Numbered from the stretch's first letter, positions 23,418-60,574 are shown. The stretch: 64,000 nucleotides of DNA from an uncultured Alphaproteobacteria bacterium (GCA_944389535.1 CALXMS010000001.1:3390-67389), one strand, 5' to 3'. Program-made: numbers and translations. The notes: generated by a model from the letters alone, not told the origin.

Positions 23418-24185
23418 TCAAAATACGACAGAGAATTCTGCACCAACTTTCCAATAATCATCTGGCATAATTTCACTGTGTTCGCTATTCTTTGTTTTGA
23501 AATGGTATTCAATATACGGATGCACAGCCGCATTTTCAGACATATTATAGACGCCACCAAATTTTATTGACCTGTTATACAACGTCACCGGATTGTCTAT
23601 TTCTTTTAAACCAAAATGAAATTCTGCCTTTACCGCAAAGTTCATTGTAAAATAATACATACCTTCTAAAGTCAAACCGACATTCCAGAAATTTTTGGGT
23701 TCTGCAAAAACGAACGTTCCTGTCACTTTTGCCGCCCATTGGAATAAATCCCCCGCAATGCCATGAATACGAAACGCAGCATCTACGTTATTATTACCGA
23801 CGCGCTGATTAGTCTTGGCGTTTTTAGTCCACGCAATACCATAATCTGCAGATAAATCTAATTTAAAGCCCTTATTGGTTAAAACTTTATAACTTAACCC
23901 CACCTGAGAATCTGCATAATCATTACTTGTACTAAAAGAAACAGTCCAATCATCTAGAAATGTGTAGTCTATTTCCATTCCGACGTCATCTATATTTCCA
24001 GACTTAACATCATCGTGCCCTGTTCCGTCTTTATTGGCACCTGTTTTAAATTCTGCGCCAAATGTTGCAGAAAATTCCTTATCTTCGGTTAAACGGCTTA
24101 CATCAAATATACCGGCATGACTTAATAATGGGAAAAAACTTCCTAAGGAACTAATAAAAAAAATGTTTATTTTTTTCATCCGCAA
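23418..24185 (-). CDS. Small outer-membrane beta-barrel protein (OMP paralogue A)
   Basis: Signal peptide (..FFPLLSHA), alternating amphipathic strands, and a C-terminal ..AEFSVVF ending in Phe. Confidence 0.8.
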   Translation of the reverse strand: MRMKKINIFFISSLGSFFPLLSHAGIFDVSRLTEDKEFSATFGAEFKTGANKDGTGHDDVKSGNIDDVGMEIDYTFLDDWTVSFSTSNDYADSQVGLSYKVLTNKGFKLDLSADYGIAWTKNAKTNQRVGNNNVDAAFRIHGIAGDLFQWAAKVTGTFVFAEPKNFWNVGLTLEGMYYFTMNFAVKAEFHFGLKEIDNPVTLYNRSIKFGGVYNMSENAAVHPYIEYHFKTKNSEHSEIMPDDYWKVGAEFSVVF

Positions 24186-24300: not shown

Positions 24301-24879
24301 TTAGAAGTTATACAAGAAACCGATTTGGAACGCACCAGTATCTAATACATTTGACGAGTCAGCAAATGCATTAAACGTCCAACCATCTTCTATACCCATT
24401 TTGTCATTTTCAAACGTATATCCCGCATTAACCCCTAAGAAGTTCAAATTAGCATACAATGTAAATGATTCGGAAACATCGTATGTTACCATTGGCGCAA
24501 CAGATAGCCTTAACATAGAAGCTGTTTCACCGTCCAACGCCTCATTTTCAGAAGCAAGTGTCACGAAACCAGCACCCACATCACCTCTTAACAGCAACTT
24601 AAAATCACCAAATTGCGCTATTTTATAACGAGCGAATACATCAACGCCATAAGAATAACGACCGTTATCAGCGTCATTCCGATTATAATTAATAGAGGCT
24701 CCTAAACCTAAATCCCAATTATCATTATATTTCCAACCAACTTCTGGTGAAATCCCCATTACATTAGAATGTGTTTCGTCCATGTTCAAAGATGCGCCAC
24801 CACCGACGAAGAAATCTGCTGCCTGAACACTGGAAACCGCAAAAACTGCCAATAAAGATGTTAAAAATATTTTTTTCAT
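24301..24879 (-). CDS. Small outer-membrane beta-barrel protein (OMP paralogue B)
   Basis: MKKIFLTSLLAVFAVSSVQAADFF.., with the C-terminus ..IGFLYNF. Confidence 0.85.
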   Translation of the reverse strand: MKKIFLTSLLAVFAVSSVQAADFFVGGGASLNMDETHSNVMGISPEVGWKYNDNWDLGLGASINYNRNDADNGRYSYGVDVFARYKIAQFGDFKLLLRGDVGAGFVTLASENEALDGETASMLRLSVAPMVTYDVSESFTLYANLNFLGVNAGYTFENDKMGIEDGWTFNAFADSSNVLDTGAFQIGFLYNF

Positions 24880-25077: not shown

Positions 25078-25845
25078 TTAGAACTGAATACCAAACTTGG
25101 CACCGTAACCGAACCCATCAGCAACAGTCCATTGACCAGGGTTTGTATGAGCCATATATTTTGCTAAGTAAATACCGACAAACATATTGTCGTCTATTAA
25201 ATAATTAGCACCGATTTTTCCTTCCCACTGACCAGCGTTTTCAACTCTGTCATCCATAATACCGGTATATTGTGCCCCAAGTGCCAAATCCCAGTCTTCG
25301 TTCAGTGCAACCAACAGGTCTGCACCCAAAGTTAAATAATGCCAACCATCATCGCCCCAGTTAAAAGATTCTGTATTAACATAATCAAAATCTATATATC
25401 CGGCAAGGGTCCATGCGTCTGTTACATAACCTGCACGCATACCGATGTTCCATGCATAGTTAGTTTCGTTTTCCTCCATAAAGCTTTTACCATAAGCCCA
25501 GACAGGATTTACACCATAGCTACCGTAAATATCAGCTTTCCACTTTTCCATATCCAACAAACGATAATTTACGCCTATGCCTAGTTGCCCCCATTCTGAT
25601 TGGTCAAACCAATTATTTTCAGCCATAGACATTGCGATGCCAACGGCCAACCTGTCGGTAATACCATATCCAAACTCTTCACCTAAATCTAGGCGAGTTG
25701 TAGAATTTGTATTAGATTCTAAATCTGTCATGCTGTAAAACATACCTTGGTCTGGACGGTATAGCGGATTGTCCAACATACCTGCAGCGTGTGCACCAGA
25801 CACTGCGAATACAGTCAACAAAGATGTTAAAACTAGTTTTTTCAT
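25078..25845 (-). CDS. Small outer-membrane beta-barrel protein (OMP paralogue C)
   Basis: MKKLVLTSLLTVFAVSGAHAAG.. (the signal peptide is nearly the same as in paralogue B), with the C-terminus ..AKFGIQF. Confidence 0.85.
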   Translation of the reverse strand: MKKLVLTSLLTVFAVSGAHAAGMLDNPLYRPDQGMFYSMTDLESNTNSTTRLDLGEEFGYGITDRLAVGIAMSMAENNWFDQSEWGQLGIGVNYRLLDMEKWKADIYGSYGVNPVWAYGKSFMEENETNYAWNIGMRAGYVTDAWTLAGYIDFDYVNTESFNWGDDGWHYLTLGADLLVALNEDWDLALGAQYTGIMDDRVENAGQWEGKIGANYLIDDNMFVGIYLAKYMAHTNPGQWTVADGFGYGAKFGIQF

Positions 25846-31785: not shown

Positions 31786-32784
31786 TTATGGCATAAGCTC
31801 TGACAATACAGTATTCATATTTTCTCTTAAAAGCTCTTTATCAGAAGACCATATTAACTGTCGCATAATGAATTTATTAACATCATCCATTGTTAAATTA
31901 GGCATACCCGCTGCGATAGCCACACGTTTCCATGCGACACGAGGATCTGTCAAATGACTGCGACCGCGACCGGGAAATACCCATCTTCCGTTTTGAGGTA
32001 AATCTTGTAATAAAACAACCGCCATATCTGACAACGGCTTTTCACACCAAGTATAATGATTAAAATCTAAATCTCGCCACTGCATAGCAAATATACTAGC
32101 CTTAGAAGCAAAACCGTATATTAACATTAAAAATGCAGATTTTAATACAGGATCGGTTTCAGCGTTGATGACACGCGTCAAGCGATGAAAGCCCGATTTA
32201 TTTAAAGGTCTTATCCGACAATGTTGTTTTATCTTTGGAATGGCAAGAACCGGGTTTTGTTTAACATATCCTGTCTCTGTTGCATATTTAAAAACACTTT
32301 GTAAGAATTCTTGCATGCGACCGGCTATAGCTCTTCCAGGAATATTATCTATTACCTTCTTTATATCTTCTGTTGATATTTCATCAATATTGCTACCTAA
32401 AATCGCGGGGAAATGTCGATTTATTGCCCGTTCTAATTTATCACGAGACTGATTATTTCGACGCACCTTCTTTTCTATATATAACTTAAGAAATTTATTC
32501 AAAGTTATTTTGCGCTTATGGGTAACTTTTTTTTCTATAGCCGCAGATAAAATCTCTGATACCGCACCACGAGCAGTTTCTATATCTGTATCAGGATAAT
32601 TACCTATGATGATTCGTTTATCCTTTCCATGAATACGTTTTCTGACAAAAAAAGTTTTTACTCCGCGACTAGTTATATACATTCTTAACCGTGGCTCAGA
32701 AATATCTTGAACCACATCAAACCCTTTATCCGGCGCAGGTAAACTGTCCAATATATAAGGATTAAAAAAGAATTGATGCGCCAT
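31786..32784 (-). CDS. Tyrosine-recombinase (P4-type integrase)-like protein that appears to lack the catalytic residues
   Basis: The N-terminal arm is integrase-like (..LPAPDKGFDVVQDISEPRLRMYITSRGVKTFFVRKRIHGKDKRIIIGNYPDTDIETAR..), as is the core-binding part. Where G-x-R-x-x-E is expected the sequence reads YGFASKAS, and where H-x-x-R is expected it reads TMDDVNKF. The last 86 residues contain no Tyr. Confidence 0.65.
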   Translation of the reverse strand: MAHQFFFNPYILDSLPAPDKGFDVVQDISEPRLRMYITSRGVKTFFVRKRIHGKDKRIIIGNYPDTDIETARGAVSEILSAAIEKKVTHKRKITLNKFLKLYIEKKVRRNNQSRDKLERAINRHFPAILGSNIDEISTEDIKKVIDNIPGRAIAGRMQEFLQSVFKYATETGYVKQNPVLAIPKIKQHCRIRPLNKSGFHRLTRVINAETDPVLKSAFLMLIYGFASKASIFAMQWRDLDFNHYTWCEKPLSDMAVVLLQDLPQNGRWVFPGRGRSHLTDPRVAWKRVAIAAGMPNLTMDDVNKFIMRQLIWSSDKELLRENMNTVLSELMP

Positions 32785-32809: not shown

Positions 32810-33223
32810 TTATCTTGCACGTAAAAATTTTTCGTGCCAAAACCTATCTCTTTTATCTAACCAAAATTTATATTTTTCTAAAACTTCACAATAATTATGA
32901 TTATCCTGGCTATACGGACAACTTTCTTTATGACATTTTGATAAATTATACTCTGAACAATCAGGAGAAAAATGCTGACAATATTCAACGCCGAAAGCAA
33001 TAGAAATTCCATCAGGATCATTAAAATTAAACTGATCTTTTATACCTGACCTAATACAAGATAAAGAAACGCCTTCTAAATCCTCGCACAATATGTAACC
33101 ACGTGCCGCAAAAACGCTTCGCTTTAATTCCTTACAATATTTTTTTAATTCTTTGTATTGCTCGCAGTCTTTACGAAATTTTTTCCAATTAGTCTGTTGA
33201 ATATAATTTAATACAGGTAACAT
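32810..33223 (-). CDS. Small Cys-motif protein, paralogue 1 of 3 (unknown family)
   Basis: The start was moved to the ATG at 33223 (AAAGGA RBS; the track start is TTG). It reads MLPVLNYIQQTNWKKF.. ..YCQHFSPDCSEYNLSKCHKESCPYSQDNHNY.. ..FWHEKF... Confidence 0.65.
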   Translation of the reverse strand: MLPVLNYIQQTNWKKFRKDCEQYKELKKYCKELKRSVFAARGYILCEDLEGVSLSCIRSGIKDQFNFNDPDGISIAFGVEYCQHFSPDCSEYNLSKCHKESCPYSQDNHNYCEVLEKYKFWLDKRDRFWHEKFLRAR

Positions 33224-33301
33224 ATAAAAATCCTTTTTGTCTTTAGTACGTATATTGTTTCGCTTCCCTCCCCTTTGTTTTCCTATAATCAAATATAAAA
33301 T

Positions 33302-33685
33302 CTATTTTGTAAGTGTAAATTTATTTATCCAAAATTTATTCTTTAAACTCCTTATACTTTTTCTCTTTTGTATCGCCTGAAAATATTCTTTATTCCGTAA
33401 ATAACACGGACAGTCACTATTTTTACAAGGTACTTTTGAGCTAAATGATTCACATTCATCAGATAACAAATGAGGCATCATATCTTCGTTATTTGAATCA
33501 ACGATGAATTCCCACCATTCTCTTAAACACGTTTGTGAGCTGCTATTATTTAATCTTTTTCTTGCTAAAATTTCTTCTTTTTCTGCTTCAAAATATTTAT
33601 GTCTGATGGCTTTATATTCTTCAAAATCCAAAGCAATTTTATTAAACGGTTCCTTAATCATGTATTTTATTACTTTAATTAACAT
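33302..33685 (-). CDS. Small Cys-motif protein, paralogue 2 of 3
   Basis: MLIKVIKYMIKEPFNKI.. ..ECESFSSKVPCKNSDCPCYLRNKEY.. ..KFWINKF.., preceded by an AAAGGAA RBS. Confidence 0.65.
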   Translation of the reverse strand: MLIKVIKYMIKEPFNKIALDFEEYKAIRHKYFEAEKEEILARKRLNNSSSQTCLREWWEFIVDSNNEDMMPHLLSDECESFSSKVPCKNSDCPCYLRNKEYFQAIQKRKSIRSLKNKFWINKFTLTK

Positions 33686-33709
33686 TTATATTCCTTTTAC
33701 ATAATCTTG

Positions 33710-34111
33710 TTATTTATGATTCTCAAACTTTCTTGCCCAGAAATTATTTTTTATTTTTAACATTCGCTCATAATCCCTATGCAACTGGTAGTATTTATTA
33801 TTTTGTACGACATACGGACAATCTCTACATTGACATTTTATTGGATCCGTCTCTAAACCAAAATGCAAACAATATTTATCATTTGCAAATAATGGGTTTT
33901 TATTTTTTGAACTTTTTTGTACTTTACGAATACATGCAAGCGGTTGCCCCATAGATTCAAATTTAGTTTCATCACAAATCAAATCTAATTTAACGATATC
34001 CGCCAGTTTATTTATAATATGTAAGTTTCTTTTTAACTGAATATAATATTGCCAATCTTTTTTTACCTCAGATAAATTAGTCTTTATAATATATTTAAAA
34101 ACAGAAAGCAT
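33710..34111 (-). CDS. Small Cys-motif protein, paralogue 3 of 3
   Basis: MLSVFKYIIKTNLSEV.. ..YCLHFGLETDPIKCQCRDCPYVVQNNKY.. ..NFWARKF... It starts 21 nt after the lepA stop codon. Confidence 0.65.
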   Translation of the reverse strand: MLSVFKYIIKTNLSEVKKDWQYYIQLKRNLHIINKLADIVKLDLICDETKFESMGQPLACIRKVQKSSKNKNPLFANDKYCLHFGLETDPIKCQCRDCPYVVQNNKYYQLHRDYERMLKIKNNFWARKFENHK

Positions 34112-36465: not shown

Positions 36466-37041
36466 ATGAAATTTGCAGAATATATATTAAATAAATCAGA
36501 AAGTCGCGCATATTCATGGATTGTTTTTATTCTAACGATTTTTGAATCTATATTTCTTTTTATTCCTCCCGAAGTATTTATGACGCCTCCTATTATTGCT
36601 AATAAAAGGCGCGCGGTTCCGATTACCATTGCGACGGCGTTGGGTTCAATAGTTGGCGGTGCAATCGCTTATATGATTGGTGCATGGTTATGGGATTCGG
36701 TTGGAATGTGGCTAATAAATACTTTCTCTAATCCGGAACTGATAGAAAACGCTATAAAACCGATGTTCAGCAAATACGGTATTTTAATAATCGTTTTAAC
36801 CGCTGTAACGCCGATACCATATAAATTATTAGCTCTTTGGCTTGGTTTTATTGGATATCCAATATGGATATTCCTTGGCGTATCAGCGATATTCCGCACC
36901 GGTCGTTTTGTAACAGTTGCGGTTCTGTTATATTTTTTCCAAGAACAAGCAAACGCGATAGTAAAAAAATATTTCTGGCCATTAACTATCGGGGCCATAA
37001 TTGCCGCTGCCTTAGGGATATTTCTAGTATCGTTATTCTAA
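36466..37041 (+). CDS. YqaA/DedA-family inner-membrane protein
   Basis: Polytopic, with ..IFESIFLFIPPEVFMTPP.. resembling the YqaA-type motif. Confidence 0.65.
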   Translation: MKFAEYILNKSESRAYSWIVFILTIFESIFLFIPPEVFMTPPIIANKRRAVPITIATALGSIVGGAIAYMIGAWLWDSVGMWLINTFSNPELIENAIKPMFSKYGILIIVLTAVTPIPYKLLALWLGFIGYPIWIFLGVSAIFRTGRFVTVAVLLYFFQEQANAIVKKYFWPLTIGAIIAAALGIFLVSLF

Positions 37042-37045
37042 AAAT

Positions 37046-37079
37046 AAAAAAGTCACGCATTGCGTGACAAAATTTTTTA
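37046..37079. terminator. Bidirectional terminator (yqaA-like gene / fibre locus)
   Basis: AAAAAA-GTCACGCA-t-TGCGTGAC-AAAATTTTTT. Confidence 0.8.
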
Positions 37080-37089
37080 TTTCAAAGTT

Positions 37090-38070
37090 TTATTCAACCC
37101 AAATTGCTGCATACGTTGTTGCCGACGCACTGCCAACTGGTATTTGAACATTGCCTTTTGTAACAGTAACCTTACCATCTGTCTGAGAAACACCTGTAAC
37201 GACCGCTCCTGAACCAGAAGTTGCGCTGTCCAAAGCGTTAATTTCGGATTTTGTTGCATACGTAGATGTAATTACGTTACCACTGGCGTCTTGCGTTGCC
37301 TTTGTCGCACTGCCAGCAGTTGTTGCGCTATCTGCTGTTGCAGCATTATTAACAGTAACAACTCCGTCTGTTGAAACTGTAATATCACCACCACTTTTCA
37401 CCCCACCCAAAGCACCGGATGTTGCAGCTGGTAAAGTATAAGCGGTTGGAATAGTTGGTTTATTGGTTAAATCATTATAAGATCCTGACGTTGCAACGGT
37501 CGCCAAGTCATTTGTGTTTGCTTTGGCTGATAATTCTGTTTTTGTTGCGTACGTAGACGTAATTACATTACCGCTGGCGTCTTGGGTTGCTTTGGTCGCA
37601 CTGCCGGCGGTTGTAGCAGAATCTGCAGTTGTTGCGCTGTTAACTGTTACTACCCCATCTGTTGAAACAGTAATATCACCACCGCTTTTCACACCACCCA
37701 ACGCACCAGATGTCGCCGCAGGTAATTCATATTCAGCAACGTCACCGACATCTGCTTTTCCTGCTAATGCCGCTGCAACCGCCTTTTCTGATGGATAAGC
37801 AGTATCTGTTGCCGATGAAACATCTCTTACTGAGGTAACTTTGTTTTTAGTTTCTTCTGCTGTTATACCCTTTGTCGCAATAATGCTATCTCCACTTGCA
37901 GTAACACTGGTAACAACATTACCAGAACCACCAGTAGAACCGGTTATACCAGACAATCGTGTTTCTACTTGCTGATCAACATACCCCGTTGATGCAATAT
38001 CAGCAACCGCGTTTCCAACAACTAGAAACGACAATACAGAAACTGCAAAAATACCTTTAAATTTCATCAT
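37090..38070 (-). CDS. Secreted tail-fibre-like repeat protein 4 of 4 (326 aa)
   Basis: Signal peptide MMKFKGIFAVSVLSFLVVGNAVA followed by DIASTGYVDQQV. It also carries TAYPSEKAV, a 62-aa unit present twice (LPAATSGALGGVKSGGDITVSTDG..), and ATVATSGSYNDLTNKP. The C-terminus is ..TTYAAIWVE. Confidence 0.85.
   Translation of the reverse strand: MMKFKGIFAVSVLSFLVVGNAVADIASTGYVDQQVETRLSGITGSTGGSGNVVTSVTASGDSIIATKGITAEETKNKVTSVRDVSSATDTAYPSEKAVAAALAGKADVGDVAEYELPAATSGALGGVKSGGDITVSTDGVVTVNSATTADSATTAGSATKATQDASGNVITSTYATKTELSAKANTNDLATVATSGSYNDLTNKPTIPTAYTLPAATSGALGGVKSGGDITVSTDGVVTVNNAATADSATTAGSATKATQDASGNVITSTYATKSEINALDSATSGSGAVVTGVSQTDGKVTVTKGNVQIPVGSASATTYAAIWVE
37249..37434 (-). repeat. Coding repeat unit, copy 2 (62 aa) in the 37090 gene
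   Basis: Encodes LPAATSGALGGVKSGGDITVSTDGVVTVNNAATADSATTAGSATKATQDASGNVITSTYATK. Confidence 0.9.
37540..37725 (-). repeat. Coding repeat unit, copy 1 (62 aa) in the 37090 gene
   Basis: Same peptide as 37249-37434 except for 2 residues (..NSATTADS..). The period is 291 nt. Confidence 0.9.
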
Positions 38071-38139
38071 TATGTATTTTACCTAAAAATAACCCTTCTT
38101 GTCATTCTCAAAATAACATAAATGCAACTTTTTTACCTA

Positions 38140-38170
38140 TGTGCGGTATAAAAATTTATTATACCGCACA
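38140..38170 (-). promoter_or_regulatory. Perfect 12-bp hairpin between fibre genes 3 and 4
   Basis: TGTGCGGTATAA-7 nt-TTATACCGCACA. There is no clean U-tract on the minus strand. Confidence 0.5.
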
Positions 38171-38196
38171 CATTTTCAAAGCCTCTTCTTCATATA

Positions 38197-39309
38197 TTAC
38201 GGTTCTGTAACAGATGCACGTGTAATATCTTCCCAAGCATACTGTCCGTTATTATATGTCAAAACATATAAACCGTTAGAATTTACTTGTTCAGCACTTG
38301 GCGCTGGAATTGCTGCGTTAATTTTTTTTGCAATCGTCTGTTCCAACTTGGCTTCTGTTACATTTGCATTTGCAATTTTTTCTGATGTTACTGCATTGCT
38401 ATCAATTTGAGCGGCACCAACAGTATTCATTGTTGCCAAATTACCTAAACCACTGATTTTTGATACAGCGATTGCAGCTGTGTCAGATATATCAGCGTTT
38501 TTGATCGCACCTGCAGCTATATCACCAGCTGCAACTTGATCTTTTGCCGCCAGCGCACCTAACGTAGGCTTATTTTGTAAATCGTTATAAGAACCCGATG
38601 TCGCAACAGTTGCCAAACCACTGATCTTTGATGCAGCGATTGCCGCTGTGTCAGATATATTAGCGTTCGTTATCGCACCTGCAGCGATATCACCGGCTGC
38701 AACTTGATCTTTTGTTGATAATTTACCTAAACCACTAACTTGGGTATTAGCAATAGCTGCACTTGTTGTTATATTACCCGTTCCATCAGTTACTAAGATC
38801 TGATTTTTTGCACCAGGTATATTTTTATCCTGTTTTGCAGCAACGCCTTCCTTCAAAGTATCAATTTCACCTTCTGCAGCGGTTAAACGCTCACCCTGAC
38901 CTGTTACAGTTGCTTCCAAACTAGTCAAATCACCACTTACAGTTGCACTTGCTGCTTCTGCGATTGCATGTGCCGCGGCAACAGATGGGTATTTCGTTTC
39001 ACTGGCAGCATCTGTAACTACTGCATCTGCAGAACTAGAAATATTTGCCTGTGTTTGGAATTTTGCATCTGCAGCTGTCTGTGTATAAACGTCTGCAGAG
39101 TTTGCTTTCAAATAAACTGTATCTGATAAGCTTTCCAATGCAGATTGATCTGCTTTCGTATTTACAGTCTGTGTCAATGTAGTTACCTGACCTTCAACTG
39201 TGCCTACTTCTTGATCAACATATGCTGTTGATGCGATGTCCGCATTTGCCGCACCGACAGTAACAACTGTCAATAATGTTGCAAATATGCCTGCTGTTAG
39301 TTTTTTCAT
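38197..39309 (-). CDS. Secreted tail-fibre-like repeat protein 3 of 4 (370 aa)
   Basis: Signal peptide MKKLTAGIFATLLTVVTVGAANA followed by DIASTAYVDQEV. It carries TKYPSVAAA, coiled-coil-like stretches, a 33-aa unit present twice, ATVATSGSYNDLQNKP and I-x-x-x-A-V-T-x-x-K-I type repeats. The C-terminus is ..NGQYAWEDITRASVTEP. Confidence 0.85.
   Translation of the reverse strand: MKKLTAGIFATLLTVVTVGAANADIASTAYVDQEVGTVEGQVTTLTQTVNTKADQSALESLSDTVYLKANSADVYTQTAADAKFQTQANISSSADAVVTDAASETKYPSVAAAHAIAEAASATVSGDLTSLEATVTGQGERLTAAEGEIDTLKEGVAAKQDKNIPGAKNQILVTDGTGNITTSAAIANTQVSGLGKLSTKDQVAAGDIAAGAITNANISDTAAIAASKISGLATVATSGSYNDLQNKPTLGALAAKDQVAAGDIAAGAIKNADISDTAAIAVSKISGLGNLATMNTVGAAQIDSNAVTSEKIANANVTEAKLEQTIAKKINAAIPAPSAEQVNSNGLYVLTYNNGQYAWEDITRASVTEP
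38446..38544 (-). repeat. Coding repeat (33 aa), copy 2 in the 38197 gene
   Basis: Encodes KDQVAAGDIAAGAIKNADISDTAAIAVSKISGL. Confidence 0.85.
38614..38712 (-). repeat. Coding repeat (33 aa), copy 1 in the 38197 gene
   Basis: Encodes KDQVAAGDIAAGAITNANISDTAAIAASKISGL. The period is 168 nt. Confidence 0.85.
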
Positions 39310-39397
39310 TTTTCCTTCCTTTCTTTTTTTTTATTTTGAATTTGAGTGTTTTTCCTTCTTTTATACCTTTTATATCTTTACTTTTTTCCAATCTTTT

Positions 39398-40312
39398 TTA
39401 ATTAGTAGGCAAAGTTACATTTACCCATGTTAAATTATTATTTTTATCAATGGACAATACGCACAATCCCGAATCGGCTGTACACTCTGCGCTTGGGCGC
39501 TTAACTGCCAAGGTTATAATTTGCTCGTCTGTTTCTGACTTTGTATACACATCATTAGCATTAGCCTTACCTTCAATAGCAGTTTCTAAACCAGAAACAG
39601 CTTCTGCTGCTGTATTCGCAGTATTCACAGCGTTAGTAACTTTTGTGGCTAAACCATTTTCTGCGTTATGAATTTCATCACTTAATTCTTCTATACTACC
39701 AGAAACTTGATCTAATTCTGTGTTTGTCGCGTAATCACCGGCGTCTTGTTTTTCTGACAAAGCTTGATATATAACACTACCTTGCACAGGGTTAACACCG
39801 TCTGGTGTCAAGGTTGTGTCAACAACCACGCCCTCTGGGATGACAGGTTTATCTTCTAAGTCATTATAAGAACCAGTTGTCGCAACAGTTGCCAAAGAAT
39901 CTGTCTTTACATATCCCTGTAACTCGCTAGTATCAACCTTTGTATCTAACTCAGACTGAAACCCGGCAACCGCCGTCTGAGCTGCAGAGGCCGTACTTAC
40001 AGCCGTAGCAACGTCCTTTACCAAACCTGCCGTATCATCACCAACAGTTATTTCCAGTCTACCAACAGAAGTTGTCAAACTAGATACATCTGAGCTAGCT
40101 TGCTGCGCCATTGAAACAGCACTTGCAACGTCTGTTTGCATACTTTCAACAGAATCTTTTTTTGCATACGAAGAATCAACCGTTTCTAGTAATGCACTAT
40201 CCTGTCTATCTACGTAATCTTTACTGGGAATAACTGCAGCATCAGCAGTAACAACACTGAATAAAACAGCGGATAGAATACATCCAGAAAAAACTATTTT
40301 ATTTTTATTCAT
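39398..40312 (-). CDS. Secreted tail-fibre-like protein 2 of 4 (304 aa)
   Basis: Signal peptide ..ILSAVLFSVVTADA, then SKDYVDRQ, long Ala/Ser/Thr coiled-coil-like segments, ATVATTGSYNDLEDKP and NPVQGSVIYQAL. The C-terminus is ..CVLSIDKNNNLTWVNVTLPTN. Confidence 0.85.
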   Translation of the reverse strand: MNKNKIVFSGCILSAVLFSVVTADAAVIPSKDYVDRQDSALLETVDSSYAKKDSVESMQTDVASAVSMAQQASSDVSSLTTSVGRLEITVGDDTAGLVKDVATAVSTASAAQTAVAGFQSELDTKVDTSELQGYVKTDSLATVATTGSYNDLEDKPVIPEGVVVDTTLTPDGVNPVQGSVIYQALSEKQDAGDYATNTELDQVSGSIEELSDEIHNAENGLATKVTNAVNTANTAAEAVSGLETAIEGKANANDVYTKSETDEQIITLAVKRPSAECTADSGLCVLSIDKNNNLTWVNVTLPTN

Positions 40313-40329
40313 TCTTTCTTTTTCCCTTA

Positions 40330-42255
40330 TTACAACTCAATGTCGTACCAAACAGGATCACCGTTTGCGTCAGTTCCTAATATCTGATTTTTAGCGGCAC
40401 CTGCTGTGGTTAGTGCGCTGTTTATTTTATTTTGTACTTCTGAAGACAATTTCGCATCTGTTACGCTATCGTCTTCAATTTCATTTGTGCCAACTTGCGA
40501 AACATAAGCTAAAGCCCCAAGCTCATCAGCATTTACCTTGTTATCGATAATCGTAATGACTTCGTTACTTAATTTATCCGCCGTAACCGTACCATCTTTC
40601 AATTTAACCCCTTCTATAGAATTATCTTGAAAGTTATTAGGATTCACGGGGACCCCTTCTTCGGACAAACTCAAAATCTGCTCATTCGTCCAATCGACCA
40701 CAGCTTTAACTGACGGATAAGCATCTACAGACTTTTCATTTCCAACATCAATCAAAGTAACTTTTCTAGATACATCTTCAGGTGTATAAGTCAGTTTATC
40801 CTGCTTCGTAGCCAAACCTGCCACAGCCTCATCCGCAGCAGATTGCGCATTTGCGGCAGCTGTTTCTGCTTCTGCTGCCGAAGTCTGAGCTGATTCAGCT
40901 TTTGATACAGCGGACGCGATTTGTGCTGCTAAACCTACATCAGGCGTATTTATCGCCGCATCTAACAATGCTACATCTTCTGCAACACCTACAAGCTCTT
41001 CTGTATCGGCTTTCTGTTCTAAAGCGCCGTACACAGCAGCAGTTGAAGGATACTCTGTTTCACTATTTGTTATGGTCTGTACTTTATTTATTGAACTTTC
41101 TTTGCTATTTATATCTGCAACAATATCTGCGCTTAATTTACTTTCAGTTACAGTGCCATCCGTTAGCTTAGTTCCAGAAATGGCACCATCATCAATTTTA
41201 TCTGGATTTACCGGTAACCCCGTATTTTTTAAATCTGTTATTTGCTGACCAGTCCACTGAACAACAGCACCAACAGATGGATACGCCGTATTAGAAGCCT
41301 GATTTTCTGCAGTTATAGCCGTAGCTTTGTTTGTAGCTAACTCTCTGGTCTGCAAACCACGTTCCGTAAGTTCTTTATTGGCATAAGTGGCATCTGCCGC
41401 TTCTTTTGTTAAATATACATCCGCCAAACCAGATATTGCAGATTGTATTGCTGCATTCATTTGTTCCGTCGTAGAATACAAACTCATATCCGCAGAATCG
41501 CCCTTTTCACCTTTTTCACCCTGCGGTCCTTGCGGTCCTGTTATTTCAGATTTAGAAATCAAAACACGCCATTCACTATCACCTTCTCCGTTATAACGCC
41601 ATAACAAATCTGTATCATTATAACCCAACTCCACTTCACGACCATCTTGACCTGCAACCATATCTAATGATTCTTGCAACGCATCAACGTCAACAAAAAT
41701 TTCATTGGTATTATCATCAATTATTATATAACCGTCCTGAGCCGGAATCAAAACATCTTGTTTATCTAACAATTGATCGGAAACATTATCATTGGCCACA
41801 CGTAAATCATCCACATCTCTTTGAAGTTGATCAACTCTACTTGTCAATTCAGAAGCTAATTCTTGATCAAAAGAACCGTCACCCCCAGAAGAAGACCCAC
41901 CACTTGGGGTTTGTGGACGCAAAGAACTACCACCACTTACAGACGTAGTACCACCAAGATATTGTCCTATAGATAATCGCGGTGTTGTAGCTACACGTCC
42001 GCTTGTTGTTGTTCCTGCACTAACCGTTGTACTTGTACCAGAAACGCCAGACGAAGGCGTTACTCTTACAGAGCCACCACGCACAGAAGCCGTAGAACTT
42101 GATGCATTACTATTTGCTGCAGCTGCGCTGGACGCGCTAGAATATGTACCACTGCCCCCCAGAGACCTTACAGATGACGCACCATATGCCCCTGATACGA
42201 CTGTGCATAAAACACATACTATTGCTAATCTTGAAATTTTTAAATCGTTTTTCAT
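40330..42255 (-). CDS. Secreted mosaic tail-fibre-like protein 1 of 4 (641 aa from the ATG at 42255)
   Basis: MKNDLKISRLAIVCVLCTVVSGAYG, then a Ser/Thr/Gly/Arg-rich low-complexity region. It also carries ..LLWRYNGEGDSEWRVLISKSEITGPQGPQGEKGEKGD.. (a short collagen-like run at 41500-41538), three x-YPS-x-x-AV motifs and D-G-T-V-T-x-x-K-L repeats. The C-terminus is ..KNQILGTDANGDPVWYDIEL. Confidence 0.85.
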   Translation of the reverse strand: MKNDLKISRLAIVCVLCTVVSGAYGASSVRSLGGSGTYSSASSAAAANSNASSSTASVRGGSVRVTPSSGVSGTSTTVSAGTTTSGRVATTPRLSIGQYLGGTTSVSGGSSLRPQTPSGGSSSGGDGSFDQELASELTSRVDQLQRDVDDLRVANDNVSDQLLDKQDVLIPAQDGYIIIDDNTNEIFVDVDALQESLDMVAGQDGREVELGYNDTDLLWRYNGEGDSEWRVLISKSEITGPQGPQGEKGEKGDSADMSLYSTTEQMNAAIQSAISGLADVYLTKEAADATYANKELTERGLQTRELATNKATAITAENQASNTAYPSVGAVVQWTGQQITDLKNTGLPVNPDKIDDGAISGTKLTDGTVTESKLSADIVADINSKESSINKVQTITNSETEYPSTAAVYGALEQKADTEELVGVAEDVALLDAAINTPDVGLAAQIASAVSKAESAQTSAAEAETAAANAQSAADEAVAGLATKQDKLTYTPEDVSRKVTLIDVGNEKSVDAYPSVKAVVDWTNEQILSLSEEGVPVNPNNFQDNSIEGVKLKDGTVTADKLSNEVITIIDNKVNADELGALAYVSQVGTNEIEDDSVTDAKLSSEVQNKINSALTTAGAAKNQILGTDANGDPVWYDIEL

Positions 42256-42275
42256 CAATTCTCTCTGCCTATAAC

Positions 42276-42305
42276 ATAATATCATATTTCCACGAATCGG
42301 GTCAA
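42276..42305 (-). promoter_or_regulatory. Possible internal promoter for the first fibre gene
   Basis: On the minus strand: TTGACC (42305-42300), 18 nt, TATTAT (42281-42276). Confidence 0.35.
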
Positions 42306-42317
42306 CTGCTTTATGAG

Positions 42318-43043
42318 TTAAAATTCATATCTTATGCCAATTGATACAGAATTATCCAAAATGAAATCTATATCGTTTTGGAACCAATGTGTTCCCGTTT
42401 CTCCGTCCAAAACAATATCATTTATTCGCTGATCTAAACCGGTCATACCAGATAAACGATAACGAAAATCTAAAATTAAATTATCGTCTAGTTCATATGC
42501 ATAACCTAACATAACACCTGCCATTGGGGCAAAAGCATATTCTTTACGTTCACCACCATTAGAGAATATAGTATCTATTGTAGTAACCGGCATCGCAACA
42601 CCGACACCTGCACCAAGATAAAAACCGTTTACAAAATCATAATAACCATTCAACATTAAATAAGGTACCTGCAAAGAAAAAGAAGATTCCGCATCTTTAT
42701 CTTCAAAATAACCCATATAACCCGCTTCTAATTCAGCGCGCCAAAAATACGCTATTTTTGTACCACCAAAAATACTGCCACCAAAAACTGGTTCAAAAGA
42801 ATATTTATCACTGTTAAATTCTTCCGGAGCTTTCAACCCTTCGTCAACACTATACTTATTTTCCCAATTCATAAAATTTAAATCGGCACGTGCACCAATA
42901 TACCAACCAGTTTTAGCTTTATCGGTATAATCGTAAGTTACCCGATAACCACCGTTATTATCACGAGTCAGGTAACTTGGTGCTGCCATTGCACCCGTTG
43001 CAACAAAACCAGCTAAAACAAAAACTGATAATATTTTTTTCAT
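42318..43043 (-). CDS. Small outer-membrane beta-barrel protein (OmpA-barrel/Omp25-like), first gene of the fibre locus
   Basis: MKKILSVFVLAGFVATGAMA, Gly/aromatic-rich strands, and the C-terminus ..SIGIRYEF. Confidence 0.85.
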   Translation of the reverse strand: MKKILSVFVLAGFVATGAMAAPSYLTRDNNGGYRVTYDYTDKAKTGWYIGARADLNFMNWENKYSVDEGLKAPEEFNSDKYSFEPVFGGSIFGGTKIAYFWRAELEAGYMGYFEDKDAESSFSLQVPYLMLNGYYDFVNGFYLGAGVGVAMPVTTIDTIFSNGGERKEYAFAPMAGVMLGYAYELDDNLILDFRYRLSGMTGLDQRINDIVLDGETGTHWFQNDIDFILDNSVSIGIRYEF

Positions 43044-43070
43044 ATCATTCCTTCCTTTAACTTTTATCAG

Positions 43071-43099
43071 AGTATATCACAAAATACGCACTTAAACAA
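43071..43099 (-). promoter_or_regulatory. Possible promoter of the OMP/fibre locus
   Basis: On the minus strand: TTGTTT (43099-43094), 17 nt, TATACT (43076-43071), then the RBS AAAGGAAGGA. Confidence 0.4.
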
Positions 43100-43116
43100 A
43101 GAACAAAAAACATATA

Positions 43117-48757: not shown

Positions 48758-49702
48758 ATGCCAAATACAAAAACAAAATATACTTTTGACTTTTTAAACA
48801 TGCACGTGCATCATGCAAACGAACAATACGTTAATGAATTACGTTTATATACAGACACAATATCATATGACAATAACGCGGAATATTGGTTATTTTCTGA
48901 CTTATATAATTTATTTGGCAAGCATTATATTGGCACCCATAATAATGCTATTGAAACGCTTGGATACGTAATAAACAAATCAGACTTTGAAAAATTACCT
49001 AAAACAAACAAAGAAAAAATTTTACGCGCGCCAAATTTTCGTACATTTTTTGAAGACCACGTAATATCAATAAAAAATAATTACAGTATAAAAGACGCGC
49101 AGAATATCAGCTTAACCAAACAAAACGCCCCCGACGCAAAAATAAGTCGTTACGCATGTTGGAAATTATTAAAACGTTGGCCAAATATGATATTTCCACA
49201 ATTATACTTTATAAGCCCGAACGCAAAATTAGACGAACTATACAAAGCAGCATATAAATTTTCTAGAATATATCATCGTAACAGACTGACAAAACTAGAA
49301 AAAATCGTTAATGGAATTGCCCATAAAAAAATGGACTTGCAGCGGTTCAATAGTTTTATGCATAAAGTATTCTTTTATAATGCGGATTTAGAAGCGATAA
49401 AATCTGCATACGGTATATCAGGAACGATATTTGATCATATGGGGGTTCGTTCTTTAATGGCGCGCTATAATGCATTAGATAAGTCTATAAATGCATATAA
49501 CATACGTCCTTCCATGACATTTGACGGATTTATAAACGTATTATATAACGAACTTGCAGAATCACGCATAGCAATGATGAATCAAACAGGCAGAACACCG
49601 GAACAAGATATATCACAAAAGTCAATCAGCAAAATATCAGGTGAATTAAAGAAACTGGAATCAGACTTTATAAATAAATACGCATTTCAAAAAATCCGTT
49701 AA
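48758..49702 (+). CDS. DinD-like (DNA-damage-inducible protein D family) protein
   Basis: ..AKISRYACWKLL.. (DinD has ..LSRYACYLV..) and ..IFDHMGVRSLMARYNAL.. (DinD has ..ILDHMGSTELAANLFRA..), with similar overall length and motif order. Confidence 0.5.
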   Translation: MPNTKTKYTFDFLNMHVHHANEQYVNELRLYTDTISYDNNAEYWLFSDLYNLFGKHYIGTHNNAIETLGYVINKSDFEKLPKTNKEKILRAPNFRTFFEDHVISIKNNYSIKDAQNISLTKQNAPDAKISRYACWKLLKRWPNMIFPQLYFISPNAKLDELYKAAYKFSRIYHRNRLTKLEKIVNGIAHKKMDLQRFNSFMHKVFFYNADLEAIKSAYGISGTIFDHMGVRSLMARYNALDKSINAYNIRPSMTFDGFINVLYNELAESRIAMMNQTGRTPEQDISQKSISKISGELKKLESDFINKYAFQKIR

Positions 49703-50754: not shown

Positions 50755-51972
50755 TTATGGATTATAAGAAATCTTACCGGTACCAGGTAAATAGAAACAA
50801 CCGTTATTATCACAAAATTGTGTTCCTTCTTCCCCACGAACCATATAACAATCTCCGACACTTGACGCGTTTTCTGGACTGGTTGTTCCTACAGGACAAT
50901 TATATTGAATATTATTACTGCAATAAGACCCACTTGGACAAATTCCAAAAACAGGTTTTAAATTAACCGTCTCTGCAACAACTGGAATATCACCACCGAC
51001 TTCTATATTACCACAAGAAGCGGTTTCACCGCTATCTGCGGTATACGAACATTCATAATATAAAAACAACTTTCCAGCACCCACACTTCCTGCATAACTT
51101 TGAGCTTTTAAACACTCTACTTCGCCTTGTTCGTTTACGTTATTTATATCACATTTTACTAAAGAGTATGTATTTTCTGAGTTATAATATCTTATCTCCA
51201 CAGTTACATCTTTCCAACAAGCATATAAAGTTATTTCTTTATTGCCATTTGCCTTTTCAATAAGTTTGGGCCATAAAGATTGGGTAAAAACACCTTGGTT
51301 ATTAAAAAACATTGTACCATCACATTTTTCTTTATCAAAATAACCATTAAACTTATTTTTAAATACACTTTCATTTTGTAAAGCGCCTGCAGGCAAACTT
51401 GCCGACCATCCTGTCGGATTATTTGTCGTGGCAAAACCTTCTTCATATTTTGCATACGCGGTTTTATTTTTTCCTATAATCCAATGAGCTTTTTTCAAAT
51501 CCAAAGTATACACATTTGGCACGCATACTTTTTCAAACGAACAGTTTCCATCATCTGTGTTGCCAGAACCTGTTACGGTACAATCAGTTCCTGTACCACT
51601 ATACCCGTTTCCACAAGAAACACACTTAAAACTGTTTGCGTCGTTTTCTGCATACGGGTTAAAATACTGCCCCGATTGACACGTAACAGTCCATGGACAA
51701 GTATTTGTGGTAAAACCCGAATATGCGGTTCCAGTTAAAAATTCGGCACCTGTGGGCTTTACTGTACAATCCGAACATTCGCCACTGCCCACCGTATTTT
51801 TATAAGTACCGGGCTTACATAAAGAACACTTATTACTACTAGAAGCAAAATAACACCCCGCAATACATGAATTATTTGCGCCAACATTGCCACAGTCCGT
51901 GGTCTGTTCGGCATTGGCAACGGTTACACAAAATAAAAAAATACCCAGTGCAGATAATATAATTTTTCTCAT
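50755..51972 (-). CDS. Secreted Cys-rich protein with ephrin-receptor-like (GCC2/GCC3-type) Cys repeats and a Listeria-Bacteroides-type repeat
   Basis: The start was moved to the ATG at 51972: MRKIILSALGIFLFCVTVANA. It carries ..CSLCKPGTYKNTVGSGECSDC.. and ..CPSGSYCSNNIQYNCPVGTTSPENASSVGDC... The middle reads ..FNGYFDKEKCDGTMFFNNQG.. ..ITLYACW... Confidence 0.7.
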   Translation of the reverse strand: MRKIILSALGIFLFCVTVANAEQTTDCGNVGANNSCIAGCYFASSSNKCSLCKPGTYKNTVGSGECSDCTVKPTGAEFLTGTAYSGFTTNTCPWTVTCQSGQYFNPYAENDANSFKCVSCGNGYSGTGTDCTVTGSGNTDDGNCSFEKVCVPNVYTLDLKKAHWIIGKNKTAYAKYEEGFATTNNPTGWSASLPAGALQNESVFKNKFNGYFDKEKCDGTMFFNNQGVFTQSLWPKLIEKANGNKEITLYACWKDVTVEIRYYNSENTYSLVKCDINNVNEQGEVECLKAQSYAGSVGAGKLFLYYECSYTADSGETASCGNIEVGGDIPVVAETVNLKPVFGICPSGSYCSNNIQYNCPVGTTSPENASSVGDCYMVRGEEGTQFCDNNGCFYLPGTGKISYNP

Positions 51973-52035
51973 CCGGAAAATCCCCCGCGATATAATTATA
52001 TTTTTACACGTTTTTAATCGGGCTGTCAATTTATT

Positions 52036-60058: not shown

Positions 60059-60523
60059 TCATTCACCGTAAGTTATTTGAACAACGTTTTCGCCGTTCGC
60101 ATTATTACAGTTCCCCGATGCACCGCTTTGGGTCCGTCCAGATAATTCATACCCAACAGAACCGTCCCATCCTTTTGTAACAAAATATTCACAATCTGAC
60201 TGAGATAAACCGTTTATAGATATTACAAACTGTCTAGAATCGGAAGGATTAACAGATATTTCATATGTCCCACCATATGGATTTTTATTAGACATTCCGA
60301 TCGCACCGAATATGGTGGCATTATTTATGTTTGAATAATCATCATATTCTGTAAACATCTGACGTACCTGCGTTACCATTTGTAACACTTCGTCATTAAC
60401 TGTATTACGTTTTTGCATACTCATCGCGCTTGATATTGCGGCTATGGCCCCTACGGTGATTACCCCCATAATTGCCAACACACCCATCATTTCAATCATA
60501 GAACGTCCAGATTCTTGTACCAT
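60059..60523 (-). CDS. Type IV pilin/pseudopilin-like protein (class III signal peptide)
   Basis: MVQESG|RSMIEMMGVLAIMGVITVGAIAAI: a short leader, Gly at -1, Glu at +5, a hydrophobic helix, and a C-terminal Cys pair (..SQSDCEYF.. ..SGNCNN..). The ATG at 60523 is preceded by a GGGGG RBS-like run. Confidence 0.7.
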   Translation of the reverse strand: MVQESGRSMIEMMGVLAIMGVITVGAIAAISSAMSMQKRNTVNDEVLQMVTQVRQMFTEYDDYSNINNATIFGAIGMSNKNPYGGTYEISVNPSDSRQFVISINGLSQSDCEYFVTKGWDGSVGYELSGRTQSGASGNCNNANGENVVQITYGE

Positions 60524-60574
60524 GTTTATAACCCCCATTTGCTATTTTGTTTTTTATATTTTATCATAAAAGGC

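Follow-up and report, generated by a model that had tools for sequence, protein, structure and literature searches.

We describe a row of five consecutive minus-strand open reading frames (ORFs), one encoding a small outer-membrane β-barrel protein and the following four encoding fibre-like proteins, at positions 37090-43043 of a 64,000-nucleotide stretch of DNA from an uncultured alphaproteobacterium (GCA_944389535.1 CALXMS010000001.1:3390-67389). The whole stretch is referred to below as the window, and the fibre proteins are numbered 1 to 4 in the order of the row (Table 1). Judged by its sequence, the window is from Candidatus Enterousia, and exactly the same sequence is found in a public 294,619-bp scaffold. 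Candidatus Enterousia belongs to Rs-D84, an uncultured order of the Alphaproteobacteria with genomes of about 0.75-1.0 Mb; these genome-reduced, fermentative bacteria lack the tricarboxylic acid cycle, respiration, flagella and standard transporters, and were inferred by the authors of the description to live as obligate symbionts or parasites (PMC12306168).

An earlier reading of this DNA, made without database searches (the sequence-only reading), had proposed a cell-surface fibre system of non-phage nature at this place. The five co-directional minus-strand genes that it had called are all present as ORFs, and the intergenic gaps of 62, 17, 88 and 126 nt that it had reported hold provided that fibre gene 1 starts at MKNDLKIS (position 42255), the start used by the orthologues and by public gene calls; an in-frame ATG further upstream, at 42285, would give an alternative product of 651 aa. 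Shine-Dalgarno-like sequences lie upstream of the starts (e.g. AAGGAAGGAA at the barrel gene and at fibre gene 3), and the G+C content of the row, 39-43%, is in line with the rest of the window. The bidirectional terminator proposed as the end of the locus is there as well, with T-runs on both strands, and ends both the fibre row and the yqaA-like gene that runs towards it. The neighbours are those first named: on one flank a VTT/YqaA-family protein, RbfA and LepA, and on the other Pal, FtsE and FtsX, followed by DUF218, an acyltransferase, an SNase-like protein and TolB. The window also carries a ribosomal-protein region and other core genes, and within its 64 kb we found no capsid, terminase, tape-measure, baseplate or lysis genes.

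Each of the four fibre proteins begins with a predicted signal peptide, as the sequence-only reading had claimed. In a rule-based check of the n-, h- and c-regions that uses the mean Kyte-Doolittle hydropathy over 12 residues and is predictive only, all four proteins display 2-3 Lys/Arg residues, a 12-residue stretch with a hydropathy of 2.2-2.9 and small residues at positions -3/-1 near residue 23-25; none of the four contains a lipobox. The feature is conserved throughout the family, since a cruder form of this test (early Lys/Arg, at least 10 apolar or small residues in a run and a small-x-small motif at residues 15-40) was passed by 157 of the 164 fibre ORFs collected from 43 related genomes. 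The fibre proteins are therefore probably exported via Sec, while their passage across the outer membrane would be a further, presumed step.

The four proteins are mosaics of short modules. A motif scan agrees with the sequence-only reading on ATVAT[ST]GSYNDL..KP in three of the four proteins, on five x-YPS-x-x-A-[AV] sites, on an I[AP]S..YVD motif that follows the signal peptide at residue 25-28 in fibres 2-4, and on Trp-containing C-termini in all four. The motif D-x-(A/S)-(V/I)-T-x-x-K-(L/I), which had been described as a repeat, is indeed present; strict matches to it occur only once or twice per protein. What does not stand is the description of the genes as four tandem paralogues: BLASTP among the four fibres detects shared modules of only 19-31 residues, all of them around ATVAT[ST]GSYNDL..KP, and no module shared between the 641-aa fibre 1 and the other three. 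Rather, these are four different mosaics, each with an orthologous positional series of its own (a slot) in which conserved ends enclose a length-variable mosaic middle, and in these middles modules have been gained, lost, duplicated and exchanged between homologues. The label 'receptor-binding' that had been attached to the modules likewise fits poorly, given that Pfam, NCBIfam and PHROGs scans reveal no receptor-binding tip domain and that each protein ends in a short conserved β-hairpin of some 20 residues. In outline these hairpins resemble the foldon of T4 fibritin, a likeness that we take to be a structural analogy: a 22-sequence hairpin profile searched against the PDB retrieved neither fibritin nor any other fibre, the best matches (E 0.11) being P450-like proteins and hirudin, and homology to the foldon was rejected.

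Fibre 1, the largest member of the row, differs from the other three. Its signal peptide leads into a Ser/Thr/Gly/Arg-rich N-terminal region, which is followed by a coiled coil, the unit DGREVELG..LLWRY..W..LI and a single collagen-like G-x-y run of 13 residues; next come a variable shaft, in which three YPS modules lie, and the C-terminal hairpin (..ILGTDANGDPVWYDIEL). GPQGPQGEKGEKG was also found in this protein. The homologues of slot 1 that were listed are 413-957 aa long and share the ends MKN.LKIS.LAIVCVLC..SGAYGASSVRSLGGSGTY.. and ..LGTD..G.PVWYEI... The Ser/Thr/Gly/Arg-rich region had been described as low-complexity sequence; it turned out to be better conserved between species than any other part of the protein: numerous Arg, Gly and Pro residues are invariant in 39 sequences, and the motifs SVR.LGG.GTY, SVRGGS.RV.P, GRVAT.PRLSIG.YLGG and SSLRP precede the coiled coil and the WRY unit. 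Mean identity amounts to 53-83% over the first 120 residues vs 12-34% over the distal half. When the first 290 residues were searched against 1.84 billion representative proteins, 966 matches were obtained; among the best 150, roughly 100 align from residue 1 of both proteins, and the conserved region is therefore always N-terminal. The remaining strong matches cover only the DGREVELG..LLWRY..W..LI-plus-collagen unit, which is tandem-repeated in unrelated long proteins. In three such proteins (P0389, P0425 and P0458) DG[RK].[IV]EL....T.[IL].W[RK]Y.G...W..L[IV] and a collagen-like run form 5-16 tandem repeats; the DG[RK].[IV]EL..W[RK]Y unit, single-copy in fibre 1 and widespread elsewhere, was not named by Pfam in the scans made. 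The AlphaFold2 model of fibre 1 is poor (predicted local distance difference test score, pLDDT, 47) and was excluded from the fold search: it contains a helix at residues 131-165, corresponding to the coiled coil, small β units and the terminal hairpin at 624-638, and shows no confident structure over residues 1-130, with residues 27-130 devoid of predicted strands at pLDDT <40. The conserved Arg/Ser/Gly-rich N-terminal region would be the best candidate for a tether.

Fibres 2, 3 and 4 are shorter and enter the shaft almost directly after the signal peptide. In fibre 2 the signal peptide is followed by IPSKDYVD, ATVATTGSYNDLEDKP and NPVQGSVIYQAL, and the protein ends in a Cys-Cys loop and a hairpin (..SGLCVLSIDKNNNLTWVNVTLPTN); it gave weak matches to DUF2730 and to PHROGs, and its slot is marked by the ends MKK.NI.FSGFMAAIL.SAGAANA...IASKQYVD.. 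and ..C.....LCVLSV...G.L.WVNVT.P... Fibre 3 has the signal peptide MKKLTAGIFATLLTVVTVGAANA and the motif DIASTAYVD, continues as a mostly helical shaft and closes with a C-terminal hairpin (..GLYVLTYNNGQYAWEDITR). More than 400 homologues of it come from gut metagenomes, none of them named; their ends (MKKLTAGIFATLL......A.A.IAS..YVD.. and ..P.P...C.....KCVL.......Y.WE.I.R..) are near-invariant, their middles are 30-40% identical and the lengths of those listed range from 257 to 583 aa. The AlphaFold2 monomer of fibre 3, built from an 81-sequence alignment, has a mean pLDDT of 65 and is made up mainly of long helices, being helical from residue 28 onwards (helices 28-52 and 55-69, with residues 31-50 at pLDDT 70-79), and within the last 25 residues the two hairpin strands (348-353 and 356-361) reach pLDDT 86-90. 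Fibre 4, always the last of the row, combines a signal peptide and DIASTGYVD with two copies of an approximately 64-aa unit (LPAATSGALGGVKSGGDITVSTDG...ATKATQDASGNVITSTYATK; LPAATSGALGGVKSGGDITVSTDG occurs twice) and the C-terminus KGNVQIPVGSASATTYAAIWVE, which is near-invariant in about 115 of 120 homologues. The ends of slot 4 read M.K.KGIFAVS.IAM......A.A.IAS.GYVD.. and ..KGNV.IPVGS...T.YATIWVE, and the listed homologues measure 223-565 aa.

Homology to phage fibres at the level of modules, recognised in the sequence-only reading, is real and was recovered from Pfam, GenBank phages, IMG/VR and PDB profile searches. Fibre 4 scores 27.4 bits against the Pfam family Phage_head_fibr (PF11133; cut-off 24.6), over profile positions 194-258 only, and its motif aligns, non-significantly (E 0.46), with the solved phi29 head fibre (3qc7). 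In tblastn searches of GenBank phages its residues 175-225 (51 aa) are 66.7% identical to a 'head fiber protein' of crAss-like Bacteroides phages, and residues 115-233 (119 aa) are 37% identical to a tail fibre/collar protein of a Burkholderia jumbo phage. When profiles of the families were compared with PDB sequences, trimeric fibres were the only matches, all weak: the P22-like tail needle gp26 for slot 3 (4lin, E 8e-5), the stalk of the trimeric adhesin NadA for slot 1 (4cjd, E 9e-4), and, for slot 4, both a fibre of a cyanophage (8i4m, E 0.009) and the head fibre of crAss001 (7qof, E 0.03). Both the PDB and the phage similarities are short or weak and in part driven by composition. Fibre 1 has no match in the phage database at E<1e-3.

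The most informative relative is a 942-aa viral fibre without a signal peptide (L089 6657-9485; IMGVR_UViG_3300037400_001024), which carries DIASKNYVD at residue 255, LATVATSGSY[NS]DLT twice, LATVATSGSYNDLT, KVLGVNSSGNTEWVN and also the C-terminal hairpin motif; the ends of the cellular fibres are built from these same short modules. Since DIASKNYVD lies at residue 255 of this protein, the IASxxYVD motif found at the mature N-terminus of fibres 2-4 corresponds to an internal joint of a phage fibre. The module search that had been suggested, with the signal peptides of the matches on record, gave the same picture for the phage-type homologues of fibre 4 (P0185, P0243 and P0244), which have phage-type N-termini and, like the viral fibre, no signal peptide. 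We infer that the cellular fibre genes derive from fibre shafts in which the virion-attachment domain was replaced by a signal peptide.

A genome survey seeded with a fibre N-terminus, with one genome per species and with counts that cover locus-bearing genomes only, returned 79 loci labelled Candidatus Enterousia or uncultured Alphaproteobacteria/Rickettsiales; they come from human, chicken, ruminant and other guts and include a closed chromosome of 958,618 bp. In the 43 species-level loci with both anchor genes, which are those analysed here, the order pal - barrel - fibre row - yqaA - rbfA - lepA is kept throughout, with a barrel-to-yqaA interval of 2.4-13.4 kb. By strict motif criteria there are 1-5 fibre genes per locus and four in 30 of the 43, and for some divergent arrays the raw ORF lists point to more fibre genes than this strict count; in three loci (L053, L054 and L056) the array is cut to two genes, those of slots 1 and 3. 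No phage structural genes were found in the roughly 10-kb flanks of the 43 loci. Since the array has the same housekeeping neighbours in all 43 species-level genomes, the synteny comparison that had been called for places the locus in the cellular chromosome, outside a prophage. One orthologue is annotated by NCBI as 'hypothetical protein'.

Within this fixed frame the fibres diverge strongly. Between species, the mean identity of the window fibres to their slot orthologues is 31-47% (gaps counted as mismatches); LepA is 88-96% identical, YqaA, RbfA, Pal, FtsE, FtsX, DUF218, PlsC and TolB are roughly 55-96% identical, and the SNase-like protein is 48-71% identical. DNA similarity between species is mainly confined to the ends, i.e. 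the 5' part of fibre gene 1, the 5' ends of fibre genes 3 and 4, and the 3' end of fibre gene 4. We also compared the window with two strains of the same species (L084 and L085) in which all four fibre genes are intact. While ftsX, ftsE, pal and lepA show a synonymous divergence (pS) of about 0.005-0.013 and a ratio of non-synonymous to synonymous divergence (pN/pS) of 0, fibres 1 and 4 reach a pS of 0.13 at a pN/pS of 0.06-0.07, fibre 3 has a pS of 0.035 and a pN/pS of 0.53, and fibre 2 combines a flank-like pS with a pN/pS of 0.15. Such a ten-fold excess of synonymous divergence together with a low pN/pS in two fibre genes points to imported, recombined alleles under purifying selection, and there is no mark of gene decay or of a hypermutation device. 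Both strains have an extra gene of the PAP2 phosphatase family between fibre gene 4 and yqaA (L084 9387-9929 and L085 7167-7721) that is not in the window, and yqaA, beside this insertion site, shows a raised pS of 0.08 (pN/pS 0.03).

Natural chimeras between slots exist as well, with the N-terminus of slot 1 and the C-terminus of slot 2 in one protein (L065 4706-9112, 1468 aa, and P0256). In the region 37000-43100 we found intragenic tandem duplications and one weak inverted repeat, and nothing else of that kind; there are no copies of fibre DNA or protein elsewhere in the window, and no reverse transcriptase is encoded among the ORFs scanned. A diversity-generating retroelement, a shufflon and silent cassettes were accordingly rejected as sources of variation, as the window holds no template/variable pairs, inverted-repeat switch or extra copies. 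End-to-end assembly of the four proteins, as in the T4 long tail fibre, was also considered as a reason for the conserved ends; both the slot-1/slot-2 chimeras and the arrays reduced to slots 1 and 3 argue against fixed joints.

Turning to the neighbours, the barrel protein at the head of the row has weak matches to Pfam Opacity/OmpA_membrane and to NCBIfam Rickettsia Adr and a faint one to OMP_b-brl; in almost every related locus its gene, at 36-79% identity, adjoins the array. Anchoring of the fibres through this barrel had been suggested on account of adjacency; we did not retain the barrel as a dedicated fibre anchor, as adjacency is what speaks for it and the window holds at least three other candidate small barrel proteins, none of them detectably related to the one beside the fibres. 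Two of these have weak OMP_b-brl matches, and the third was recognised by its signal peptide and C-terminal Phe only.

Further along, 4.3 kb beyond lepA, lies a gene for an integrase-like protein with matches to Arm-DNA-bind_3, Phage_int_M and the PHROG_1 integrase (E 2e-25) and without a match to the catalytic domain (PF00589); it keeps its position in nearly all related species at 59-89% identity and may be a domesticated or degenerate tyrosine recombinase. The three small AT-rich ORFs between it and lepA (local GC 28.5%) are 21-46% identical between species, partly cross-match one another and have no Pfam or PHROG match, and form a second fast-evolving islet near the fibres. Three other genes of the window are listed for completeness: an ORF with a prepilin-like N-terminus (..GRSMIEMMGVLAIMGVITVG..) and no family match, a protein whose sole match is a PHROG family of unknown function (phrog_8036, E 1e-15), and one with an Ephrin_rec_like Cys-rich repeat. 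Type IV pili are not reported for Rs-D84 in the published description (PMC12306168).

Table 1. Positions of the fibre row, its internal features and other genes of the window mentioned in the text
Feature	Position	Strand	Details
Small outer-membrane β-barrel protein	42318-43043	-	241 aa; signal peptide; C-terminus IRYEF; first of the row, divergent from pal
Fibre gene 1 (slot 1)	40330-42255	-	641 aa; start MKNDLKIS
Fibre 1, conserved N-terminal region	41386-42180	-	residues 26-290; candidate envelope tether
Fibre gene 2 (slot 2)	39398-40312	-	304 aa; 17 nt after fibre gene 1
Fibre gene 3 (slot 3)	38197-39309	-	370 aa
Direct duplication inside fibre gene 3	38431-38714	-	116 nt, two copies, 86% identical
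Fibre 3, C-terminal β-hairpin	38227-38268	-	residues 348-361; family-invariant V-L ... W-E
Fibre gene 4 (slot 4)	37090-38070	-	326 aa
Direct duplication inside fibre gene 4	37243-37725	-	192 nt, two copies, 82% identical
Bidirectional intrinsic terminator	37052-37068		7-bp G+C-rich stem, 5 G-C pairs
Integrase-like gene	31786-32784	-	332 aa
Three small AT-rich ORFs	32810-34111	-	160, 127 and 133 aa
Candidate small barrel protein	23418-24185	-	weak OMP_b-brl match
Candidate small barrel protein	24301-24879	-	weak OMP_b-brl match
Candidate small barrel protein	25078-25845	-	signal peptide and C-terminal Phe
ORF with prepilin-like N-terminus	60059-60538	-	159 aa
Protein matching phrog_8036	48758-49702	+	314 aa
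Protein with Ephrin_rec_like repeat	50755-52029	-	424 aa

We read the row as a lineage-specific, chromosomally fixed set of genes for domesticated, exported fibre shafts that probably form trimeric surface fibres for contact with other cells, and we put the probability of this reading at roughly one half. According to this model, a Sec signal peptide would have taken the place of the virion-attachment domain of a phage fibre, with the mature chain of three of the four fibres beginning at I-A-S-x-x-Y-V-D. The chains would be exported by Sec, and the conserved C-terminal Trp hairpin would serve as the nucleus of folding or trimerisation, giving rise to elongated and probably trimeric fibres. Their conserved N-terminal ends would keep these fibres attached to the envelope, with the Arg/Ser/Gly-rich region of fibre 1 as the best candidate tether, and the fibres would project outwards to touch partner cells or host surfaces with the shuffled shaft as the exposed part. 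Diversity of the shafts, between the conserved ends, would arise as modules are shuffled, segments are duplicated internally and alleles recombine. A role in contact with cells or with a host is favoured because of the partner-dependent lifestyle inferred for these bacteria, and by analogy we favour a function like that of the surface fibres of Bdellovibrio discussed at the end; surface location, anchoring and adhesive role are each presumed in this model.

Several observations weigh against it. No secretion system or usher was found beside the fibre genes or seen in the window, and no adhesive or receptor-binding tip domain was recognised in the Pfam, NCBIfam and PHROGs scans. The most conserved parts of the fibres are their ends, including the distal C-terminus, which is the opposite of the variable tips of the Bdellovibrio fibres and of phage receptor-binding proteins. 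The structural models represent monomers, and their confidence is low to moderate (pLDDT 65 for fibre 3 and 47 for fibre 1), Foldseek of the fibre 3 monomer against the PDB gave no match at E<=0.001, as is expected for a monomeric fibre model, and the weak profile matches to PDB fibres may reflect coiled-coil composition alone. Finally, partner dependence is itself inferred in the literature from genome content (PMC12306168). More tentatively still, and with less confidence than we place in the general reading, the row could encode the apparatus by which a gut alphaproteobacterium that depends obligately on other cells attaches to its partner, in which domesticated phage shafts are held by a novel Arg/Ser/Gly-rich N-terminal anchor, possibly onto the adjacent barrel, and a species-specific, recombining repertoire sets the partner, be it a bacterium, a protist or the host epithelium; if so, a counterpart of the Bdellovibrio system would have evolved a second time, independently.

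Almost as compatible with the data as cell contact is a variable protective nap, i.e. a coat resembling a surface layer (S-layer) or glycocalyx, a variable antigen or a phage decoy that shields outer-membrane receptors from phages, host immunity or bile and diversifies under that pressure. A variable shaft between two conserved ends, the lack of a tip domain and recombinational exchange within the species would all suit such a coat, as would the Ser/Thr-rich composition of the fibre proteins, which is compatible with glycosylation, and the fact that the nearest phage relatives of fibre 4 are head fibres, that is, decorations instead of receptor binders. Yet a pN/pS of 0.06-0.15 in three of the four fibre genes is a poor fit with strong positive selection driven by immunity or phages, no S-layer anchoring domain was detected in Pfam and NCBIfam scans, and PADLOC defence models gave one spurious weak restriction-enzyme match only. 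We consider a nap unlikely as the main function, and it would be compatible with adhesion at the same time.

The location next to pal, tolB and ftsEX raises another question, namely whether the proteins stay in the periplasm as Lpp- or CpoB-like coiled-coil tethers or spacers tied to Tol-Pal and FtsEX. Sec signal peptides without a known outer-membrane export device, a high coiled-coil content and faint matches to TolA_bind_tri and to an Ala-zipper lipoprotein (E 0.01-0.15, far under the cut-off) are what one would expect of such spacers, but lengths of about 140-1468 aa within one positional series are not, as a spacer spanning the periplasm should be constrained in length. Nor would phage modules, shuffling and an interspecies identity of 31-47% be expected of a housekeeping periplasmic protein, and the lipobox is absent; we hold this explanation to be distinctly improbable. 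Least probable by far, and in our view hardly credible, is that the row is a remnant or a working part of a phage-derived particle (a prophage, gene transfer agent or tailocin), with its remaining genes at other places in the genome. The module homology to phage fibres and the clade-conserved integrase-like gene beyond lepA could be taken that way, but signal peptides occur throughout the family and are absent from virion fibres, structural, lysis and packaging genes are absent from the 64-kb window and the flanks of the 43 loci, and the GC content of the row is ordinary for the window. The integrase-like gene, moreover, is separated from the row by lepA, rbfA and yqaA and itself lacks a match to the catalytic domain.

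Members of Enterousia and of Rs-D84 at large occur widely in the guts of humans (non-industrialised), poultry and ruminants, and we know of no account of how they make contact with other cells. With about 6 kb (roughly 0.6% of the genome) given over to exported, recombining fibres, the row is the most obvious candidate for contact machinery and provides concrete targets for antibodies, imaging coupled to fluorescence in situ hybridisation, metaproteomics and the identification of partners. The conserved ends around shuffled shafts also offer a natural system in which to study how fibres diversify by recombination.

How does the row compare with known systems? The sequence-only reading knew of none with such an architecture, a statement that needs correcting in view of the mosaic adhesive trimer (MAT) fibres of Bdellovibrio bacteriovorus, which are signal-peptide-bearing, phage-fibre-like surface trimers encoded outside prophages and for which surface display and glycan binding were demonstrated (Caulton et al. 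2024, PMC10769870). The Enterousia fibres share with MATs the Sec signal peptide, the phage fibre features, a cellular location outside prophages, multiple copies, a mosaic build with one conserved end and a host bacterium that lives on other cells (for Enterousia, as inferred from genome content). However, in all 21 MATs a conserved β-rich domain of about 130 aa directly follows the signal peptide (PMC10769870), whereas Enterousia fibres 2-4 start with the shaft motif or helices and fibre 1 with predicted disorder; this comparison sets motifs and AlphaFold2 models beside the published description of the domain. MAT tips vary (S74, TNF-like, lectin, β-sandwich), whereas each Enterousia fibre ends in a short conserved hairpin; Pfam, NCBIfam and PHROGs scans detected neither Peptidase_S74 nor any other tip domain, and PDB searches gave no sequence match to the solved MAT tips. 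Furthermore, MATs are about 1000 aa long, have β-helical shafts and are scattered over the genome, whereas the Enterousia fibres are 300-650 aa long, largely coiled coil and encoded in one fixed tandem row. Since both the β-rich N-domain and the diversified tips are absent, the Enterousia fibres are, as far as sequence allows, not members of the MAT family, and MATs are their closest precedent in concept.

Phage fibres share with them the modules Y-x-LPAAT..LGGVK, LATVATSGSYNDL..KP, I-A-S-x-x-Y-V-D and V-L-G..G...W-V and a trimeric (for Enterousia, probably trimeric) coiled-coil character, as in head fibres of the phi29 gp8.5 type and of crAss-like phages, gp26 and the tail fibres of jumbo phages. 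Unlike the proteins described here, they lack a signal peptide, have an N-terminal virion-attachment domain and are encoded beside virion genes, and the similarity spans 20-120 residues and leaves out fibre 1, for which no phage match was found. Type Vc adhesins (YadA, NadA and BadA) resemble the proposed Enterousia fibres in being exported, trimeric coiled-coil surface fibres of Gram-negative bacteria with mosaic, repetitive and length-variable stalks, but their orientation is reversed: the conserved candidate tether of the Enterousia fibres is N-terminal, their C-termini are short soluble hairpins, and because no C-terminal anchor barrel is present (no match to YadA_anchor or a related family at E<=1 in Pfam or NCBIfam), trimeric autotransporters are excluded. 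The collagen-like hair proteins of Gram-positive surfaces, BclA of the Bacillus exosporium and Scl of streptococci, form trimeric filaments of a surface nap with a conserved N-terminal attachment motif, a repetitive length-variable middle and a C-terminal trimerisation domain; Enterousia differs from them in having one 13-residue G-x-y run and a diderm envelope, and no C1q/TNF-like C-terminal domain was found in its fibres.

We found no description of the locus in the literature on Enterousia, Rs-D84 and MAT fibres. The re-use of phage-fibre architecture by a cell for its own surface is already known from the MATs, and the Enterousia row would add a second, structurally different case. What appears to be new is the fusion of a signal peptide at an internal fibre joint, the conserved hairpin C-termini and the fixed tandem row in which each fibre follows its own positional series. 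The route of re-use can, in this case, still be read in the sequence, with a signal peptide placed at what is an internal joint motif in a phage fibre.

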